A stretch of 64,000 nt of DNA, taken from the IMG/VR virus record IMGVR_UViG_3300045988_162434, positions 1 to 64,000 of that record; one strand, written 5' to 3'. A program made the translations under genes and the position numbers. The stretch's first letter is position 1. Each line of letters begins with the position of its first letter. Origin of the DNA: a virus. Below the pieces are notes generated by a model. That model was not told the DNA's origin. It did no database searches and worked only from the letters and a program-made list of their open reading frames with translations. Of the stretch, positions 9,340 through 27,589 are shown one piece after another.

Positions 9340-10253
9340 ACTTTTTCACTATTATTTAATATAAATATATTATTGCCTGCTATATATATTGGAATACTAT
9401 ATGCAGCAGCAGCTAATATGCCAACACCCCATGTTTGTGTAGATGGGCAACCAGTTAAAGAAATAGTTACTACAGTATTTGCTGGAATACCTTTTTTTAA
9501 TTGAATTTGTAATTTTAAATAAACTGTTTTATTACTTATATAAGAATTATTGTCAACCAAATGATCTACATATTCACTATCTAAAGAAATATTATCTAAT
9601 TTTATGTTTGATAATAAATTAGTTAATACTTTATTTTGCACAGGATTTGTACTTGTAGCACTTAAAGCATTATCAATAGGAGGCTGAAATTTAGTCCAAT
9701 CTTCATTAGTAATAGTTACAGATTGAAAAACATCAAATTCAATTTTAGTATCTTTTTTTAATGCATGTTGAAAAATAATGTTGCCTGTTGACATTATATT
9801 ATAATCAACTCCTTCAATTAAATGAACTCCATTTAAGTATATTGTTATTATAGCCGCATCAGCATAAGGGAATGGAATAACAAGAGTAGATGAACTATCT
9901 TTATCAACTGTATGCACATAAGACTTCTTTTGATAATAATTACTTAATTCTGATATTTTATCATTAAGCACTTTACCTTGATTGGCACTTAGGGATGAAT
10001 CAGTTGCAGTTGATGTCAAATTGTCAACAACTGGTCGCCAAGTATCTGTAAATTTAGCATTACTTGGTACATTAACGCCTACTGTATGACCACCAACAGT
10101 GTCTGCATTACCTCCATTAGCTGGCATACTTGTTGGGAAATTAGTTATATCAGCTTTAGTATGAGTATGTCCTATTTTTGAAAATACTTTAGCTATTTTA
10201 TCTGCAAAATTCTTAAATTGTGTAGAGAGATATGTTTTATTTACATAACCCAT
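9285..10253 (-). CDS. tail fiber protein
   Basis: 322 aa. The N-terminus MGYVNKTYLSTQFKNFADKIAKVF is shared with the next gene. It carries the motifs PANGGNADTV and PSNAKFTDT, which recur in other fiber genes. Confidence 0.5.
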   Translation of the reverse strand: MGYVNKTYLSTQFKNFADKIAKVFSKIGHTHTKADITNFPTSMPANGGNADTVGGHTVGVNVPSNAKFTDTWRPVVDNLTSTATDSSLSANQGKVLNDKISELSNYYQKKSYVHTVDKDSSSTLVIPFPYADAAIITIYLNGVHLIEGVDYNIMSTGNIIFQHALKKDTKIEFDVFQSVTITNEDWTKFQPPIDNALSATSTNPVQNKVLTNLLSNIKLDNISLDSEYVDHLVDNNSYISNKTVYLKLQIQLKKGIPANTVVTISLTGCPSTQTWGVGILAAAAYSIPIYIAGNNIFILNNSEKVWGASGWTPNIIGSYLSF

Positions 10254-20795: not shown

Positions 20796-20880
20796 AATAA
20801 AACAGCTTGTTCAAGAAATTGAGGAGGAGAGACTCGAACTCTCGGTCTTTCGCGTATAGTTGAATAATTGAGATTTGAAC

Positions 20881-21498
20881 TCAAATTTGAAGCCAATCCT
20901 CATCAGAAATAGTTTTAATAATAGAAACTTTACTTGGCAAATTATAAGCAATACACCATTTTCTTATAGCATTATCACTTACATTATACATTCTACCAAT
21001 TTGAAGAAAAGATGTTGTGCGAATTAGATTTTTTAATGTATCACGATCAGGTCTTTCTGTTATTCGTTGTTGCATCATAGCACAATTTTGACAATAAGTT
21101 GCTTTTGAAGTAATAGTCTTTCCACAATTAGGACAATATTTAATTTGATGTTGTCTTAATTGAATAATTCGATTTGTAATTTCTTGAGCCTTTTTATCAT
21201 TATAAGAAGATTCTAAATCAAAGTCTTCTAAATTACTATGAACTTCACGATGGCAATTTGCACAAAGTAAAATACTTTTCTTTAATTCATTACAAACTCG
21301 TTCCCAGCTACAAGAATTTGCTTTATTGAAACTAAGTTCTTTTTCTTCTGGATTAAGATGATGAAATTCTAAAGCATGAATATCCTTATGATATCCACAT
21401 AATTGACATTTTTCACCCATTACATAAACCATATCTAATTTACGTTGATCTCTACTGTTTTTTACATTTTCATATGACATTTTATACACCTCTTTCAT
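20881..21498 (-). CDS. HNH homing endonuclease
   Basis: 205 aa. HNH motif CQLCGY...LEFHHLNPEEKE...LLCANCHREVH, a C-terminal zinc ribbon (CPNCG...CQNC) and an HTH. It sits at the edge of the tRNA array. Confidence 0.8.
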   Translation of the reverse strand: MKEVYKMSYENVKNSRDQRKLDMVYVMGEKCQLCGYHKDIHALEFHHLNPEEKELSFNKANSCSWERVCNELKKSILLCANCHREVHSNLEDFDLESSYNDKKAQEITNRIIQLRQHQIKYCPNCGKTITSKATYCQNCAMMQQRITERPDRDTLKNLIRTTSFLQIGRMYNVSDNAIRKWCIAYNLPSKVSIIKTISDEDWLQI

Positions 21499-21603
21499 AT
21501 AAAATGTAAAATTGAACTATTCCTTTATCGAACTTTGACCTCTGTTTTTCATTAAACTATTATTCATTAGTCGAATGCTTTAGCCATCTAAGCTACTCCC
21601 CAG

Positions 21604-21688
21604 CGCTGCACACAGGATTCGAACCTGCAAAGCCTTTCAGCTCAACCGATTTCAAGTCGGCTCCCTCACCACCCGGACATACAGCATA
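21604..21688 (-). tRNA. tRNA-Ser (anticodon UGA), type II
   Basis: Anticodon arm GCCGA-CTTGAAA-TCGGT, long variable arm, T-arm GCAGG-TTCGAAT-CCTGT, acceptor GCTGTAT/GTGCAGC with G-U pairs. Confidence 0.6.
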
Positions 21689-22176
21689 CATTTTAGAATC
21701 AAAAATTTTATTTTAATTTCCTTACTTAACGCCTAGACATTGTTAAGGGGTCTGCGTTGCCACTCCATCTTCCTTTATTTCCCTCATTCCATAAAAATAA
21801 AATTTTAATTCTTCAACTCGGTACTTTTCATCTTAACTCTTGATTACCCAAGTAGTAACCGATTTTAATTATATCGCCTAAGATAGCGGATTCAATATTT
21901 TGTTCTCAATCGTTGGTAATAGCGTATTGAGGCAGAGGTGACGAAATCTCCGCATCTACATGTAGTCATCATAGCAGATTAAATATTACACTTGTATTTT
22001 AGCAGTAATCGCATCATCCTGAGTACTAACACCCATTAAATAAGAGCCTACACTGTTGTGACGATGTCCGCAATTTGCATACGGCTTCTCTGGCTAGTGA
22101 GTTATTATCATACTCTACTTTCGTTTTTCAGCTCTTAATCTCTATTATTTTTAGTCATTTGAGATTAACAGACTAG

Positions 22177-22224
22177 CGCCAGCACTAGGATTCGAACCTA
22201 GATACCCAGATGGATAGAAAGCTT
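22177..22224 (-). tRNA. tRNA-Ser (anticodon GCU), 3' half of a split gene
   Basis: Contains anticodon-loop AA, anticodon stem GCTTT, a 16-nt variable arm, T-arm CTAGG-TTCGAAT-CCTAG, acceptor TGCTGGC plus G73. It pairs with the 5' half at 22924-22958. Confidence 0.55.
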
Positions 22225-22923
22225 GCTCTTAAAAGATTTTATTCCTCTTCTTTTTCTACTTTCCATACAAAACCATATGCGGTGTTGCGTTTTCCATTAG
22301 CTGCTTGGCTAATATGAGAACCACCACGTTCAACATTTATTGCTCTTGAGGCATCAGCATAACTAGAATATGTATTTAAATACTCACCATTTAAAGAATA
22401 TTGTTTTATTTTAATCACTTCTTTCTTAAAAAGAATTTTGTTTAAATTTTCTTTTTGTTCTTTTTGCTCTCTTTCATCATAAGAGATTTTTGAAAGAGTT
22501 TTTAAAAGCGTGTAATCAGATAATAAATCTCCAGTTTGATTACAAGAATTTTTTTTAAACAACAATTTTTTAGAGCTAATTCCACATTGACCAACAGGAA
22601 TTAAATAACATTGATTATTGTAATAAGTAGCAAAAACATCTATATCTTTTTCTGAATAAGAATGTTGAACACTACCTTGAGCAGATAAATGAGTACTTTT
22701 TGTATTAAATACAATTCCATTATTTTCCTCTCTGCAAGTTTTTACTTGCACTCTTAATAATTTACCTTCAATATCAGCAATAAAATCATATCGACAATCT
22801 TCAGATAAAGGAACTGATACATTATATCCTAATTGCGTAAAACTTATTTGACATTGAAGTTCTGTGGTAAGTCCTTTAATTTTTGTTTCTTGTAGCATAG
22901 AATGTATATAATATCTTTATTAG
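22225..22923 (-). mobile_element. Intervening sequence (about 699 nt) splitting tRNA-Ser(GCU) between anticodon-loop positions 36 and 37; encodes an endonuclease
   Basis: The flanking halves reconstitute a canonical type II tRNA (acceptor GCCAGTA/TGCTGGC, loop TTGCT|AA). The insert ends ...TTTTAAGAGC. Confidence 0.55.
22239..22898 (-). CDS. PD-(D/E)xK-type homing endonuclease with a C-terminal NUMOD4-like DNA-binding domain
   Basis: 219 aa. The N-terminus GLTTELQCQISFTQLGYNVSVPL...YDFIADIEGKLLRVQVK (D...E.K) is paralogous to ORF 25912-26340. The C-terminus GEYLNTYSSYADASRAINVERGGSHISQAANGKRNTAYGFVW matches the NUMOD4 pattern (..F.S..EAA......I...L.GK.K.A.GF.W). Confidence 0.6.
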   Translation of the reverse strand: MLQETKIKGLTTELQCQISFTQLGYNVSVPLSEDCRYDFIADIEGKLLRVQVKTCREENNGIVFNTKSTHLSAQGSVQHSYSEKDIDVFATYYNNQCYLIPVGQCGISSKKLLFKKNSCNQTGDLLSDYTLLKTLSKISYDEREQKEQKENLNKILFKKEVIKIKQYSLNGEYLNTYSSYADASRAINVERGGSHISQAANGKRNTAYGFVWKVEKEEE

Positions 22924-22958
22924 AGCAAGCTTTTGCGATACCCTTACGCCATACTGGC
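22924..22958 (-). tRNA. tRNA-Ser (GCU), 5' half of a split gene
   Basis: Acceptor GCCAGTA, a 3-bp D-stem GCG/CGC with loop TAAGGGTAT (Ser-like), and anticodon stem AAAGC followed by TTGCT. Confidence 0.55.
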
Positions 22959-23225: not shown

Positions 23226-23296
23226 TATGTGTATTAGGATTCGAACCTAAACTTAAAGTTTAAAACTCTTTTGTGCTACCTTTACACTATACACAT
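23226..23296 (-). tRNA. tRNA with ambiguous anticodon: UUU (Lys) or UUA (ochre-suppressor reading), depending on the fold
   Basis: Acceptor ATGTGTA/TACACAT is perfect, with T-arm TTAGG-TTCGAAT-CCTAA. The anticodon region AAAGAGTTTTAAACTTTAAG folds two ways. The first, AAAGA-GTTTTAA-ACTTT, gives UUU. The second, AAGAG-TTTTAAA-CTTTA, gives UUA. Confidence 0.45.
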
Positions 23297-23740: not shown

Positions 23741-24035
23741 CTTATCAGGCTAGCTGCAGTGGTATCGGGGAATTGCACCCCGGTTTCCTCTTTATAAGGA
23801 AGGCGACTTATCTAGTTAGTCGAATACCCTAGCCTATAAAATGACAGTTCACTCTTCTGCCGATTCAACCAGTTTCTTGCTTTTCCTGTGCAAGGCTTAA
23901 TTAAATGCTTTATTCTAGGTATTGTCGCGACACGTCACTAGAAAGAGTGTTATAATAAAGTTAAGCACATAAAATTTTAAAGTTACAATCTAAATCATCT
24001 TCTTTAAAATTGCAAAATTGCTGTTTGTGCTCAAA

Positions 24036-24769: not shown

Positions 24770-25402
24770 ATATTTAATATTCTCAATAAAAACAAAATAG
24801 AATAGTCCTTCGACTTACTATAACATATCTTCAAAATTATTACTCTACATAGGAGATAGAGGCTGAGCAAGGCTAGCTAATTCCTTACTTCTCTACCCCA
24901 GCATAATTGCCATATCTATGACAGGATTGACTACCTGCACCTTTCACTTAAACCATTCAGCATATACTTTTATAATTAAGAATTTTCCTCATTCTTTAAT
25001 TCAAATTATCAACTACTTTGCATTAAGCTACTTAGAGTTGCATACAGTTCTTATATCAACATTTCTGTTGTTTCATTGCAAAACGGATTATTGGTATTTC
25101 CTAGGATTGCTACTGGGTACCACCCCGATTTAGCCTAACTAGGAGAGGGAGTGATTAAACTCCTTTTTATTGTTCCGCCGAACCGCATCCTGAGCTATTT
25201 TGCGATATATCTAGTGCCATGACTTTACTTTGGGTTTCCAACCTCTTCATTTCAGTATCACTACTTTCAATGCGGACCACTATCCACAAGTATCCTTGTT
25301 TCGTTCGTGCCGAGCTCTTTTCGCCATGCCTTAGCTGTGTGGTTAGTACATCTGCACTAAGATATTCATTTTTGTTTTTACTGAGAATATTAAATTTTTA
25401 AA

Positions 25403-25475: not shown

Positions 25476-25865
25476 TAGTTGCATTACTGCTCCATTACGC
25501 GCACCTGTCTACGCAACTTCCGCAGTACACCTGGACACTTGATATTCTTAGGATTTTCTTCAAGTGTTGCCAATCTATTCTTTAAAATTGCTAATTTCTG
25601 TTCTCTTGTCATAATATCCAATCCCTTTCTATTGTTATATAATAGATCCAATCCTGCTGGTTATTAGCAAGTAAACCTCGTTTACAAACCAGCTGGATCT
25701 ATACCACATTTTAGACAGTAGCCGACTGTACGCTTTACCACTCACGTATCTAGGAGAATTTTGTCTTTTGCTTTCAATCTAACAAAACAATTCTAAAACC
25801 AAAACAACTTTGCTTACTGTTTAAGTTGAATCAGAGGCTAATTTGATTAACTTGCATATAAGTAG

Positions 25866-25903
25866 CGGTTCTAGCGGGGCTCGAACCCGCGTTATTCTCC
25901 CGT
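25866..25903 (-). tRNA. tRNA-Asp (anticodon GUC), 3' half of a split gene
   Basis: Anticodon-loop AC, anticodon stem GGGAG, T-arm GCGGG-TTCGAGC-CCCGC, acceptor TAGAACC plus G73. Confidence 0.6.
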
Positions 25904-26389
25904 GACTTAAATCATAAGTTCAATAAAACTTTCTCAGCAATAAAATCTTCTGCAAATTTTTGAGTTGACATTTTAGGTTTTTTTAACCAAAATTTTGTTT
26001 CTGTAGTTCCAAAAATAGGAAAAATATAAAAATTTTTATTATATTCTGTCATAAAATAGTCACAATCATTTTTAGTATATTTTTCATGTTTTACTCTCTG
26101 AGATTTAGAAATATCTCTAACCTCATAGCGTGTTTTCACTAAAAAACTTCGACCATTATCTTGCATACTTGCATGTTTTACTTGAATTCTAGTAAACTTT
26201 CCATTTTTCTCAATAACCAAGTCATATTTTTGATGATTTCCCATGGGAATTAAAACATTATACCCTTGTTCAATTAGAAAAAGCTGACATTGCATTTCTG
26301 TTATAAGTCCAATTTGAGAAGGATTCATTTCTATTTTCATAAATAACTCTCCTTTCTCTAAGAAAGTTTTACTATTGCTTATTTTTCAA
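25904..26389 (-). mobile_element. Intervening sequence (486 nt) splitting tRNA-Asp(GUC) between anticodon-loop positions 36 and 37; almost entirely an endonuclease ORF
   Basis: The halves give a perfect 7-bp acceptor (GGTTCTA/TAGAACC), a perfect 5-bp anticodon stem (CTCCC/GGGAG) and the canonical Asp loop CUGUC|AC. The insert ends ...GATTTAAGTC, resembling the Ser insert end TTTTAAGAGC. Confidence 0.6.
25912..26340 (-). CDS. PD-(D/E)xK-type homing endonuclease
   Basis: 142 aa. GLITEMQCQLFLIEQGYNVLIPMGNHQKYDLVIEKNGKFTRIQVK (D..E.K) is paralogous to the N-terminal domain of ORF 22239-22898. An RBS GGAGAG precedes the ATG. Confidence 0.55.
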   Translation of the reverse strand: MKIEMNPSQIGLITEMQCQLFLIEQGYNVLIPMGNHQKYDLVIEKNGKFTRIQVKHASMQDNGRSFLVKTRYEVRDISKSQRVKHEKYTKNDCDYFMTEYNKNFYIFPIFGTTETKFWLKKPKMSTQKFAEDFIAEKVLLNL

Positions 26390-26426
26390 GACAGGGGAGT
26401 ACCATATCCAGCTAGGCGATAGAACC
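26390..26426 (-). tRNA. tRNA-Asp (GUC), 5' half of a split gene
   Basis: GGTTCTA-TC-GCC..(D-loop with GG)..GGT-A-CTCCC-CTGTC. Confidence 0.6.
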
Positions 26427-27394: not shown

Positions 27395-27477
27395 ATACCC
27401 TCAAGCTAGGGTGAGGCGGCATCGAAAGACTCGAACTTTCAACCTTCCTTTCATACGGTTATGCTACCATTACACCA
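27395..27477 (-). pseudogene. degenerate tRNA-like element
   Basis: Good T-arm GAAAG-TTCGAGT-CTTTC and a pairable acceptor (CGGCATT/GATGCCG), but no anticodon stem-loop with a 7-nt loop could be folded. Confidence 0.3.
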
Positions 27478-27589
27478 ATGCCGCAAATGCACTTATTGCA
27501 GTAAGTACATCGAGTTATTTTGGCTTTTTCGTATAATATACTGCAATATACCATTAACTAATATCAACCAAACAAGTCCTTCAGTTGGC

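Follow-up and report, generated by a model that had tools for sequence, protein, structure and literature searches.

An HNH endonuclease gene within a tRNA-shaped intervening sequence that splits a phage tRNA-Ile gene at its anticodon loop

The window, a 64,000-nt stretch of viral DNA, appears to contain at 20819-21602 (minus strand) a single tRNA-Ile gene, the anticodon loop of which is broken by a 710-nt mobile intervening sequence carrying an HNH homing endonuclease gene. The intervening sequence would be excised by the enzymes that mature tRNAs, together with a ligase. We place the probability of this reading at roughly 0.6. The evidence comes from the two exons, an empty site in a near relative, the predicted fold of the insert and related inserts in other phage tRNAs.

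ARAGORN, run in intron mode, called a tRNA-Ile at 20819-21602 with a 710-nt intron. The 5′ exon (21567-21602, minus strand), which aligns to positions 9691-9726 of the related contig L081, consists of the acceptor strand TGGGGAG (21602-21596) upstream of the HNH gene, a normal D arm (GCTT/AAGC), the anticodon-stem strand TTCGA and the loop nucleotides CTAA. It is directly abutted by tRNA-Ser(UGA) at 21603-21685, and an exact search of IMG/VR with this exon returned no match. The 3′ exon (20819-20856, minus strand), delimited by ARAGORN and by 37/37 identity to the corresponding half of the uninterrupted L081 gene, contains the loop nucleotides TAC, the anticodon-stem strand GCGAA, the variable loop AGACC, the T arm GAGAG-TTCGAGT-CTCTC (20843-20827), the acceptor strand CTCCTCA (20826-20820) and the discriminator A. 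Both halves are complete, and the outer acceptor strands form 7/7 pairs, one of them G·U. When the insert was removed after a structural scan, ARAGORN recognised the outer cloverleaf of the spliced construct as tRNA-Ile(aat). The predicted spliced loop is CUAAUAC with the anticodon AAU, which is unusual in bacteria. The window tRNA has an A31·G39 mismatch and A34, whereas its L081 counterpart has U31·G39 and G34. Judged by the AAU anticodon after splicing and this mismatch, the window copy may be poorly adapted.

The window phage and L081 are closely related (DNA identity 92-99%; a neighbouring protein 92% identical). At the same site, right after tRNA-Ser, L081 carries a tRNA-Ile(GAU) without interruption (TTCGTCTGATACGCGAA), which scores 65 bits on the Rfam tRNA model RF00005. 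The blastn alignments break between window 22014-21572, matching L081 9280-9721, and window 20857-19373, matching L081 9726-11219. Thus, the window carries a 710-nt insertion in the anticodon loop (20857-21566, minus strand; absent from L081), between CT(G/A)A and TAC. The insertion point lies between nucleotides 35/36 or 36/37, the junction being ambiguous by 1 nt. The HNH element is therefore seen as an occupied and an empty site at one precise position in close relatives, and the homologous phage without the HNH gene, a comparison proposed in the initial annotation, confirms the insertion. Between the 5′ exons of the two phages there are five differences, three of which keep or improve pairing.

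The ORF of the insert (205 aa; 20881-21498, minus strand) was identified as an HNH homing endonuclease by its translated motif and by tblastn matches to phage genes annotated as HNH endonuclease. The translation shows CQLCGY...HHLNP...N...CANCHREVH, the HNH beta-beta-alpha metal motif with flanking Cys pairs (CxxC...HH..N...CxxCH), along with a zinc ribbon and a C-terminal HTH-like domain. The Pfam HNH score by itself was 15.4 bits, below the cut-off of 21.4 bits. The true start is likely to be the second ATG at 21480; it is preceded by AGAGGTG, and the homologue alignments start at query residue 6-7. The stop codon TGA (20883-20881) falls within the 5′ strand of the insert T-arm hairpin. Nucleotide searches of GenBank phages gave weak matches to the HNH gene only.

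Since the ORF interrupts the fold, the window insert could not be scored directly as a tRNA. When the ORF was deleted, the minimum-free-energy fold of the element was a cloverleaf (-16.6 kcal/mol, z -2.66) with an acceptor, a D arm, an ORF-closing stem, a T arm and a 4-nt tail, and it is the oversized 'anticodon loop' of this cloverleaf that holds the ORF. The 5′ part of the fold (21544-21566, minus strand) is formed by the acceptor strand TGAATAA (21566-21560), TA, and the D arm GTTT-AATGAA-AAAC (21557-21544), the TAGTTTAA...AAAC motif of which recurs in related elements. At the position of a tRNA anticodon stem, the 8-bp ORF-closing stem pairs the 5′ strand GAGGTCAA (21535-21542, minus strand) with the 3′ strand TTGGCTTC (20889-20896, minus strand). 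The latter lies within codons for the conserved C-terminal ..DWLQI, and equivalent stems are visible in the sequences of L019 and L058. The 3′ part (20857-20884, minus strand), supported by the fold, the structural scan and acceptor/T-stem covariation over 24 related elements, comprises the T arm TTGAG-TTCAAAT-CTCAA (20884-20868), the acceptor strand TTATTCA (20867-20861) and the tail ACTA (20860-20857). The insert thus has the features of a tRNA-like element: its acceptor stem stacks on a T arm whose loop has 7 nt, and a D arm and an unpaired 3′ tail are also present.

In IMG/VR, about 26 related elements were found in anticodon loops of phage tRNAs, ranging from 44-nt minihelices up to complete tRNAs nested in other tRNAs. 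They begin at tRNA position +1 and mostly end N-CCA. All loci were put through a strict scan, in which a T arm had to be present, the acceptor had to pair 7/7 and the host anticodon stem 5/5, and the loop had to be restored to 7 nt; candidates were then spliced and checked with ARAGORN. The scan gave 25 hits (19 distinct) of 43-907 nt, each on the same strand as the tRNA. Although it accepted tails of 0-5 nt, 22 of the 25 hits had a 4-nt tail, reading N-CCA in 20 of these 22. The restored-loop rule is true of any clean DNA insertion; it fixes the element ends and is no proof of splicing. A relaxed structural scan of the window gave chimeric false positives, and the statistics are those of the strict scan only. 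Contigs with tRNA-shaped inserts include IMGVR_UViG_3300045988_151163, _171746, _171584 and _165223. In Bacillus phage SDFMU_Pbc, a brute-force junction search produced too many solutions accepted by ARAGORN to be interpreted.

Pairing in the acceptor and T stems reaches 99.3% over 24 elements, a figure that is partly circular as most rows of the alignment (A4) were pre-selected for pairing; in the same stems, 92 cells were changed on both sides, compared to 21 in shuffles. Fixed-length constructs were used for this purpose, as MAFFT/RNAalifold put the 5′ ends of full-length ORF-less inserts out of register and found no stem other than the T stem. ORF-less members score as tRNA on RF00005 (39.5-63.5 bits, above the gathering score). 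Reduced, ORF-less derivatives of 44-76 nt persist in anticodon loops with an intact acceptor/T minihelix and N-CCA. Complete nested tRNAs were found after ordinary tRNA calls had been removed and the sequences re-scanned: a tRNA-Asp inside a tRNA-Asn in L023, and a CUA suppressor tRNA inside a tRNA-Ile in L034. tRNA-Lys(UUU) is the commonest host of the tRNA-shaped inserts. The endonuclease cargo of the scaffold is HNH in the window and GIY-YIG elsewhere.

The 3′ end of the inserts follows that of the neighbouring tRNAs. Where these encode CCA, the insert ends N-CCA; in L069 (CCA encoded in 0/14 tRNAs) it ends right after the discriminator, and in L075 (1/6 tRNAs) one nucleotide past it. The window phage's own tRNAs are without encoded CCA, yet its insert keeps the 4-nt tail ACTA. 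Changes in the outer tRNAs were also compared. The introns of L019 and L022 are just 74% identical, and their outer tRNA-Arg shows four compensatory double substitutions, distributed over the acceptor, anticodon and T stems. In L059 (host tRNA-Glu) and L060, which have a 66-nt ORF-less insert, compensatory changes are seen in both the host anticodon stem and the insert acceptor stem. As far as these substitution patterns tell, the outer tRNAs with inserts stay under selection.

Two more tRNAs of the window array are split. The second split tRNA (22176-22958, minus strand; ARAGORN intron mode), present in L081 at 99.4% identity, is probably tRNA-Ser(GCU) by its long variable arm. Its 699-nt insert carries a PDDEXK_5 plus NUMOD1 ORF (22239-22898), and the insert ends form a long helix continuing the anticodon stem. 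The third, tRNA-Asp(GUC) (25865-26426, minus strand), has a 486-nt insert with a PDDEXK_5 ORF (25912-26340), and the site is empty in L081. Three endonuclease genes thus lie inside tRNA sequences within about 5.6 kb, in agreement with the three tRNA-associated genes remarked at the outset. Both PD-(D/E)XK inserts are devoid of tRNA-like arms, and at least these would therefore need some other removal route. No bulge-helix-bulge motif was seen in them upon junction inspection or in folded mini-constructs. RNase III was considered for the helix-only inserts and rejected on arithmetic grounds, because a 2-nt staggered cut in a regular helix cannot give a 7-nt loop. In the ORF-poor part of the window (37.5-56 kb), treating TAA, TAG or TGA as a sense codon gave no information, the DNA being AT-rich.

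In the proposed mechanism, the element would spread as DNA, its endonuclease driving homing into tRNA genes that have no intron, and would be removed at the RNA level by the enzymes maturing ordinary tRNAs and not by self-splicing. RNase P would cut the 5′ junction, which is position +1 of the mimic, and an RNase Z-type or similar endonuclease would cut the 3′ junction, past the mimic tail. These cuts would leave an anticodon-loop nick with 3′-OH and 5′-phosphate ends, the halves being held by the outer tRNA body, and the nick could then be sealed by an ATP-dependent RNA ligase of the T4 Rnl1 type. Splicing would join ...TTCGACTAA directly to TACGCGAAAG... at the junction. Known RNase Z cuts are made after the discriminator or, in Thermotoga, after the encoded CCA, and encoded CCA inhibits RNase Z in many bacteria (PMC7479834). 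Precise cleavage behind CCA would thus call for RNase E, a Thermotoga-type RNase Z or an enzyme of the phage. In the window copy, the 3′ exon would retain three extra bases if RNase Z cut behind the discriminator; to judge from its sequence, this copy fits the tRNA-processing model less well than its relatives. That the elements form an undescribed class of phage tRNA intron, with a tRNA or its mimic nested in the anticodon loop, freed by RNase P plus an RNase Z-type enzyme and resealed by an RNA ligase, is a tentative proposal to which we give slightly less than even odds. A speculative origin, suggested by element boundaries that coincide with those of a mature tRNA down to the CCA, is that a repair ligase joined a whole tRNA into a nuclease-cut anticodon loop.

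Genes for the sealing step were searched for. Neither an RNA ligase nor RtcB was detected in the 64-kb window (Pfam on about 40 ORFs; tblastn with phage RtcB and Rnl1 queries) or in L081 (tblastn). Among the first 81 loci, the tblastn ligase matches were the query sources themselves, RtcB in L048 and L050, and an Rnl1-family gene in L061. Neither L081 nor the flanks of loci with tRNA-shaped inserts showed an RNA ligase, RtcB or a splicing endonuclease, and IMG/VR scans for Rnl1 relatives showed no contig with a tRNA-shaped insert among the best 80 listed. Rnl1-family and RtcB ligase genes do adjoin tRNA arrays in other phage contigs of the same IMG/VR metagenome datasets.

Other readings of the locus were weighed against removal by tRNA-maturing enzymes. 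The initial annotation had described a tRNA-like unit at 20823-20905, a possible remnant at the array edge which the 3′ end of a free-standing HNH gene had eroded, or with which it had fused. The HNH ORF at 20881-21498 (minus strand) was as described, and so was the hairpin GAGAG-TTCGAGT-CTCTC followed by CTCCTCA (20843-20820), which is the real T arm and acceptor strand of tRNA-Ile. Taken as a whole, the unit is a chimera that joins the outer tRNA 3′ half to the T arm of the insert; ARAGORN made no default call there, and the 9-kb Rfam scan gave no tRNA match. Its supposed acceptor partner TGAGGAT (20903-20897) lies in the ORF (codons D-E-D-W), where 6/7 pairing is coincidental; the true partner is TGGGGAG. 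The second hairpin, TTGAG-TTCAAAT-CTCAA (20884-20868), is present, not as a relic of the outer tRNA but as the T arm of a recurrent tRNA-shaped intervening sequence. Likewise, an insertion does tie the HNH gene to a tRNA, but inside the anticodon loop and with both halves complete, not by erosion or fusion at the 3′ end of the gene. A decayed remnant could draw on the permissive, sub-threshold Rfam tRNA match at 20819-20905 (21.1 bits, E 0.13, against a gathering score of 29), on the many homologues of the window HNH protein that are free-standing between tRNA genes, and on the well-known free-standing homing endonuclease genes of phage tRNA clusters, such as T4 SegB (PMC2330249). The window gene, however, stands between two tRNA-Ile halves and not between intact genes as in SegB-type placement. 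The real 5′ half at 21567-21602 with its 7/7 pairing, the intact gene of L081 at this spot and the coding position of TGAGGAT refute the remnant reading, which we hold to be very improbable. A group I self-splicing intron with an HNH ORF, like those of T4, SPO1, Twort and cyanobacterial tRNAs, would agree with the anticodon-loop location and the encoded homing endonuclease, and the PDDEXK_5 family of the neighbouring inserts includes I-Ssp6803I of a tRNA-fMet group I intron. Against it, Rfam gave no match to RF00028 or any other group I or group II core in two scans (9 kb at E<=10; 921 nt with permissive filters). The insert outside the ORF amounts to about 110 nt (about 86 nt upstream of it and 24 nt downstream), compared to about 200 nt or more for group I, and the ORF-less relatives of 44-76 nt are far under any group I core. 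The insert ends ...ACTA and the exon ...CTAA (or both shifted by 1 nt), so the last exon base is A and the element end is not G, in place of the terminal G and the U before the 5′ splice site that mark group I. The chance of a group I intron is accordingly the slightest of all.

A selfish DNA element that is never removed from RNA is unlikely but deserves more serious consideration. An HNH cassette with its original tRNA-like gene would have transposed in and inactivated the tRNA-Ile, too recently for the halves to have lost their intact look. That the event is recent is indicated by the empty site in L081, which is 92-99% identical; the A31·G39 mismatch, the AAU anticodon and a non-CCA tail at odds with the local CCA-less tRNAs also agree with inactivation. 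The seven loop nucleotides survive any clean insertion, no ligase was found in the window, L081 or the insert-locus flanks, and the host supplies its own tRNA-Ile, so that the loss may be tolerated. On the other side, the 44-76 nt derivatives have kept the minihelix and N-CCA without an ORF, which implies RNA-level selection after mobility was lost. Compensatory stem substitutions in outer tRNAs with diverged inserts, the tracking of the local tRNA 3′-end convention by the insert end, and the three of five 5′-exon differences from L081 that keep or improve pairing also speak against an element left in the RNA. A different protein route, in which a structure-recognising endonuclease leaves 2′,3′-cyclic phosphate and 5′-OH ends that RtcB joins, as in archaeal and eukaryal tRNA splicing, seems quite improbable. 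RtcB is common in bacteria, its genes adjoin tRNA arrays in the related phage contigs L048 and L050, and two PD-(D/E)XK inserts of the same array are without tRNA-like arms. Inspection and folding of the HNH-insert junctions, however, revealed no bulge-helix-bulge (two 3-nt bulges, 4-bp helix); both junctions are found at the foot of an acceptor-like helix of 7-8 bp, the unpaired nucleotides being 4 on the 5′ side and, on the 3′ side, 3 along with the 4-nt tail. Pfam scans of about 40 window ORFs gave no EndA/Sen-type splicing endonuclease. RNase P and RNase Z recognise what these elements display, namely tRNA mimicry, genuine tRNAs in nested form and ends at N-CCA or the discriminator, and these enzymes leave 3′-OH/5′-phosphate ends, which RtcB cannot join.

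The element resembles several known systems in part. Bacterial tRNA group I introns (Synechocystis tRNA-fMet/I-Ssp6803I; Azoarcus tRNA-Ile; Patescibacteria, PMC13011429) likewise occupy the anticodon loop, carry a homing endonuclease gene and show presence/absence polymorphism in close relatives, and they share the PF11645 family with the neighbouring window inserts. The window insert differs in having no catalytic core or terminal G and far too little non-coding RNA, and its ends form a tRNA-like cloverleaf, not P1-P10 helices. Archaeal bulge-helix-bulge introns of tRNA and rRNA, some of which contain LAGLIDADG endonuclease genes or functional RNAs, are likewise ribozyme-free, need proteins and can carry an ORF or a functional RNA. 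The window insert is in a bacterial virus and is without the bulge-helix-bulge, and its predicted cutters are RNase P and RNase Z, giving 3′-OH/5′-phosphate ends instead of the cyclic phosphate/5′-OH ends of EndA. T4 SegB (PMC2330249) and the T5 HNH enzymes also represent HNH or GIY-YIG genes embedded in a phage tRNA array; the window gene is inside a tRNA gene and wrapped in a structured RNA element. In MALAT1 mascRNA, plant mitochondrial t-elements and mitochondrial tRNA punctuation, a tRNA mimic similarly sets both the RNase P and RNase Z cut sites. The flanks are not rejoined in those systems, whereas those of the window insert are halves of another tRNA and would need ligation. In T4 anticodon-loop repair (PrrC, then Pnkp and Rnl1), a phage RNA ligase seals a broken loop with 3′-OH and 5′-phosphate ends, and tRNA-Lys(UUU), the commonest host of the tRNA-shaped inserts, is shared. 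T4 repair answers a host attack and removes no sequence, and the window has yielded no Rnl1 gene. The halves of split and permuted tRNA genes (Nanoarchaeum, Cyanidioschyzon) are also joined after transcription, by BHB-type processing of separate or circularly permuted halves; in the window, the halves flank a tRNA-shaped insert in one transcript.

To our knowledge, the tRNA introns of bacteria and phages described so far are self-splicing group I and a few group II introns, and tRNA splicing by proteins has been held to belong to archaea and eukaryotes. Standard tRNA finders miss such split genes, as seen with 3 of the 24 tRNAs of the window array, or call them with wrong anticodons; several 'Gln', 'Thr' and 'Trp' calls become Lys(UUU) at the true junction. 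Missed and misassigned split tRNAs distort phage tRNA repertoires and the stop-codon recoding inferred from them. If the proposed removal is true, a tRNA-mimicking, ribozyme-free insert cut by RNase P and RNase Z would constitute a third tRNA-splicing route, and would provide a constitutive job for Rnl1-family phage RNA ligases. It would also show how a selfish endonuclease gene can sit harmlessly inside an essential RNA. The scaffold could be a working tRNA, e.g. an amber suppressor, and nested suppressor tRNAs could couple the maturation of two tRNAs.

The tRNA array runs on the minus strand from ~28171 to 20819, and all features of the locus lie on this strand. Directly after tRNA-Ser(UGA) (21603-21685), the sequence TGGGGAG-TA-GCTT-AGATGGCTA-AAGC-A-TTCGA-CTAA makes up the whole 5′ half of a tRNA, upstream of the HNH gene, and its acceptor strand TGGGGAG pairs with CTCCTCA at 7/7 positions. 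When introns were allowed, ARAGORN called a tRNA-Ile at 20819-21602 with a 710-nt intron. A homologue 92% identical to the protein encoded just downstream was found on IMG/VR contig 3300045988_151163 (L081; L-numbers denote phage loci collected for comparison), which carries the same tRNA array at 92–99% DNA identity to the window. Here an uninterrupted tRNA-Ile(GAU) comes directly after tRNA-Ser (L081:9691-9764; 65 bits with the Rfam tRNA model). The alignment is broken at window positions 21572 and 20857, and the window thus has 710 extra bases between CT(G/A)A and TAC. Compared with this empty site, the insert occupies 20857-21566, its ends being ambiguous by 1 nt owing to a T that recurs at each junction. 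The 3′ exon matches L081 at 37/37 positions and the 5′ exon differs at 5/34 (A3G, T11C, one D-loop base, T31A, G34A), a pattern that resembles co-conversion during homing. The locus is read as a tRNA-Ile gene split by a mobile HNH insert, with a probability of about 0.97.

The initial annotation had placed a tRNA-like remnant at about 20823-20905, overlapping the 3′ end of the HNH ORF. Its observation was confirmed in part and its interpretation was right in part: the arms stand and the unit does not. The hairpin GAGAG-TTCGAGT-CTCTC is present at 20843-20827, followed by CTCCTCA, and the hairpin TTGAG-TTCAAAT-CTCAA at 20884-20868, where it holds the stop codon of the ORF. As a tRNA unit, the region received no ARAGORN call and nothing from Rfam in a 9-kb scan; with permissive Rfam filters it reached 21.1 bits, under the gathering score of 29. 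TGAGGAT, taken as the acceptor strand, lies within the HNH coding sequence and its pairing is coincidental, and the hairpin taken as a second T arm of the remnant is actually the T arm of the insert. The homologous phage without the HNH gene that was sought is represented by L081, with its intact tRNA-Ile(GAU) at that site.

The HNH ORF (20881-21498, 205 aa; assigned from translation and motifs) is built of three parts: the motif CQLCGY...HHLNP...CANCHREVH, a zinc ribbon and, at the C terminus, a module resembling a helix-turn-helix. Annotated HNH endonucleases in many phages match it by tblastn. The start is probably the second ATG at 21480, with AGAGGTG ahead of it; homologue alignments open at residue 6–7. 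The closest homologue (L001:1308-2189, 51% identity) is free-standing and lies between an intact tRNA-Ile(GAU), which directly precedes it, and a downstream tRNA-Arg. As this gene adjoins an intact tRNA-Ile, nucleases of the lineage may be targeted to tRNA-Ile genes, whether in an insert or not.

Non-coding sequence in the insert amounts to only ~86 nt 5′ and 24 nt 3′ of the ORF. The insert opens with the seven bases TGAATAA, which are paired with TTATTCA close to the insert's 3′ end; TGAATAA, the acceptor 5′ strand, is followed by TA and a D arm, GTTT-AATGAA-AAAC. The ORF is closed off by an 8-bp stem, GAGGTCAA/TTGGCTTC, and the 3′ strand TTGGCTTC falls in the codons of a conserved C-terminal DWLQI. 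A 5-nt linker leads to the T arm (TTGAG-TTCAAAT-CTCAA); beyond this arm lie the 3′ strand of the acceptor and, as a 4-nt tail, ACTA. Minimum-free-energy folding with a short loop in place of the ORF gave precisely this cloverleaf (−16.6 kcal/mol, z −2.66).

Group I introns in tRNA genes have been described (e.g. PMC13011429), and the insert is like them in being mobile and endonuclease-bearing. It differs in failing the defining tests: group I and group II models gave no match in the 9-kb Rfam scan or in the permissive-filter scan, and the 3′ end is ...ACTA, not G. No bulge-helix-bulge was found at the insert junctions, so the insert differs from that class of intron as well, and both readings were rejected. 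Free-standing endonucleases have also been described, e.g. of the T4 SegB type (PMC2330249), from which the window HNH differs in not being free-standing. Among the nearest functional analogies of the tRNA-shaped insert is mascRNA, as a tRNA-like processing signal, and of the mechanism proposed below, T4 anticodon-loop repair.

With the HNH protein as query, 80 loci were obtained from IMG/VR, almost all in large-phage tRNA arrays. ARAGORN in intron mode placed many homologues within split tRNAs of varied identity and also detected short ORF-less 'introns'. A strict structural scan for a T arm and acceptor inside anticodon loops was then applied, requiring full pairing in the T stem (5/5), acceptor (7/7) and host anticodon stem (5/5) and a loop restored to 7 nt; tails of 0–5 nt were permitted, and candidates for which ARAGORN gave no normal tRNA over the spliced junction were discarded. 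The 25 hits (19 distinct, 43–907 nt long) are all on the array strand. In every case the insert starts at position +1 of the tRNA-shaped fold, mostly with G, and the insertion point follows loop nucleotide 3, 4 or 5 (tRNA positions 34/35, 35/36 or 36/37). The tail is 4 nt in 22/25 hits and N-CCA in 20/22 of those. Acceptor and T stems are 99.3% paired over 24 elements, but most of these rows were picked for pairing, so the percentage is not what counts and weight is placed on pair-type diversity and on the conserved loop and tail. In the same 24 elements, 92 cells were changed on both sides as against 21 in shuffles, and slid registers came nowhere near the true-register covariation. A search anchored only on D-arm/T-arm sequences added two cases in tRNA-Lys (L193 and L201), and ordinary AT-rich phage tRNAs share these motifs. 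Among 77 nucleases with the shared C-terminal domain, the T arm lies at a fixed offset from the stop codon in 11 and at a shifted offset in L008; the remainder are free-standing between tRNAs or within helix-only inserts. The window insert very likely belongs to this tRNA-shaped family.

The range of the family is wide. When each of 638 ordinary tRNA calls was cut out and the joined flanks were re-scanned, genuine tRNAs were found nested within anticodon loops of other tRNAs: a tRNA-Asp(GUC)+CCA in tRNA-Asn(GUU) (L023), a CUA (amber suppressor) tRNA in tRNA-Ile(UAU) (L034:3917-3992, 47.8 bits; also L035), and a third case in L055. As Rfam tRNAs, the inner elements score 63.5, 47.8, 41.2 and 39.5 bits. 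The smallest inserts, of 44–50 nt (L009/L010, L051, L059), are an acceptor stem, short linker, T arm and N-CCA, nothing more. L006:243-337 is an ORF-deleted copy retaining the nuclease's last codons (..DEEWLKI*), and L019 and L022 have the same scaffold with a GIY-YIG gene in place of HNH. The GIY-YIG ORFs (L019:2377-3282, L022:2388-3294) contain several in-frame TAG codons, e.g. YIG-TAG-S versus the usual YIGQS, which points to TAG being a sense codon in these phages. Once the true junction was used, the ARAGORN anticodon changed in many cases: several 'Gln', 'Thr' and 'Trp' calls became Lys(UUU) with the loop CUUUUAA, 'Arg(UCG)' became Arg(UCU), and the window 'Ile(UAU)' became AAU.

Two more split tRNAs were called by ARAGORN with introns in the window array, probably Ser(GCU) (22176-22958, 699-nt insert) and probably Asp(GUC) (25865-26426, 486-nt insert), both on the minus strand. 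Nearly all of each insert is a PD-(D/E)XK nuclease ORF of PF11645 (I-Ssp6803I-type). The 699-nt insert is common to the window and L081, and L081 has an intronless tRNA-Asp where the window holds the 486-nt insert; the two tRNA-Asp anticodon stems differ by compensatory changes, CTCGT/ACGAG against CTCCC/GGGAG. Neither tRNA-like arms nor a ribozyme was found in these two inserts. Their ends form a long helix that extends the anticodon stem (for Ser, 12 bp without a mismatch), and helix-only inserts of this kind are also seen in L008, L041, L047, L055, L056 and L073. Removal of the Ser and Asp inserts would need a route of another kind.

Other features of the window were noted, all on the minus strand. 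A full-length ROOL RNA (24785-25385; 275 bits, E 1e-62) lies inside the array between tRNA-Met and tRNA-Ile(UAU), and is conserved in the relative (L081:5320-5920) and also seen at L055:1-167. A tRNA with anticodon UUA (23226-23296; 61 bits, Rfam tRNA), kept at L081:7423-7493, would read the UAA stop. An odd 139-nt tRNA-like gene (45649-45787) adjoins tRNA-Trp; its acceptor stem, D arm and T arm are good, a short hairpin and ~70 extra nt replace the anticodon/variable region, and ARAGORN forced it into a 'tRNA-Stop(tta) with a 47-nt intron'. Extra Rfam tRNA matches without an ARAGORN call (23761-23828 and 27417-27482; L081:6881-6948) scored 32.3 bits, which exceeds the gathering score, and 26.7 bits; they are perhaps degenerate or atypical tRNAs of the array.

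The architecture of the inserts, their precise boundaries and their presence/absence polymorphism are established. At the DNA level, HNH-driven homing would move the element. At the RNA level, tRNA end-processing enzymes would remove the insert, and a 3′-OH/5′-phosphate nick in the anticodon loop would be sealed by an Rnl1-type ligase. The minimal substrate that RNase P and RNase Z accept is an acceptor/T minihelix with N-CCA at its 3′ end, and T4 Rnl1 seals the anticodon-loop nick following PrrC damage. Removal by the end-processing enzymes is suggested by this minimal substrate together with a 5′ junction at position +1, and also by the insert 3′ boundary, which matches the local tRNA 3′-end convention. 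Inserts end in N-CCA where CCA is encoded by neighbouring tRNAs; at L069, with CCA encoded in 0/14 tRNAs, the insert ends directly after the discriminator, and at L075 (1/6) one base beyond it. The cut made by RNase Z falls after the discriminator, with a 3′-OH left behind; in Thermotoga the enzyme cuts immediately downstream of an encoded CCA, and CCA ends can also be made by RNase E (PMC7479834). The L019 and L022 inserts are only 74% identical and their outer tRNA-Arg has four compensatory double substitutions; between L059 and L060 (66-nt ORF-less insert), compensatory changes are found in the host anticodon stem and the insert acceptor stem. These changes argue for continued function of the interrupted genes. 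Judged from such sequence patterns, the RNase P/RNase Z/ligase mechanism is put forward tentatively, at odds just short of even.

The seven-nucleotide rule defines the element and is not proof of splicing, since a clean DNA insertion keeps the loop nucleotides anyway. No ligase, RtcB or EndA genes were detected by Pfam and tblastn in the window, L081 or the short flanks of insert-bearing loci. Rnl1-family and RtcB genes adjoin tRNA arrays in other phage contigs of these metagenome datasets. For the RtcB and T4 Rnl1-family ligase genes at L048:4780-6030, L050:4615-5865 and L061:3798-4739, homologous nuclease genes and tRNA arrays are no more than 3 kb away. Rnl1 relatives are common among contigs of dataset 3300045988, and Rnl1 contigs and insert-bearing contigs did not overlap among the matches listed (best 80). 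The window has an RNA-biology-like gene cluster on the minus strand (1331-3823, 4318-5028, 5133-6593, 7639-8133, 54655-55545), made up of major-vault-protein shoulder/repeat, calcineurin-like phosphoesterase, DUF2828/DUF7788, NADAR and Thg1-like 3′-5′ nucleotidyltransferase genes; phosphoesterase and DUF2828 homologues are again beside tRNA arrays at other loci.

Within the family, the window copy is the weakest case. In the tRNAs of this phage CCA is absent and the next base is T, and the insert nonetheless carries ACTA as a 4-nt tail; if it were cut after the discriminator, CUA would stay attached to the 3′ exon. The exon beside the insert has A31·G39 and A34 (anticodon AAU), as against U31·G39 and G34 in L081. 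The window copy may have arrived recently and be spliced poorly or never.

In the full-text literature, as incompletely covered, no account of tRNA-shaped inserts or of tRNA-in-tRNA anticodon-loop nesting was found. In the cultured Bacillus subtilis phage SDFMU_Pbc (Agatevirus; L112, OQ884030.1 35611-39168), a homologous HNH gene at ~1373-2100 of the locus is flanked by tRNA-like halves, TGTCGTA-TA-ACTC..GAGT upstream and GTAGG-TTCGAGT-CCTAC-TACGACA downstream, and the ORF is closed by a 9-bp stem, CTTGATTAA/TTAATCAAG. By its layout, this resembles the ORF-bearing tRNA-like element in stand-alone form, and the phage is a possible experimental system. As the anticodon loop of tRNA-Ile(UAU) in L034 houses the CUA tRNA, maturation of this suppressor may be coupled to the cutting of another tRNA.
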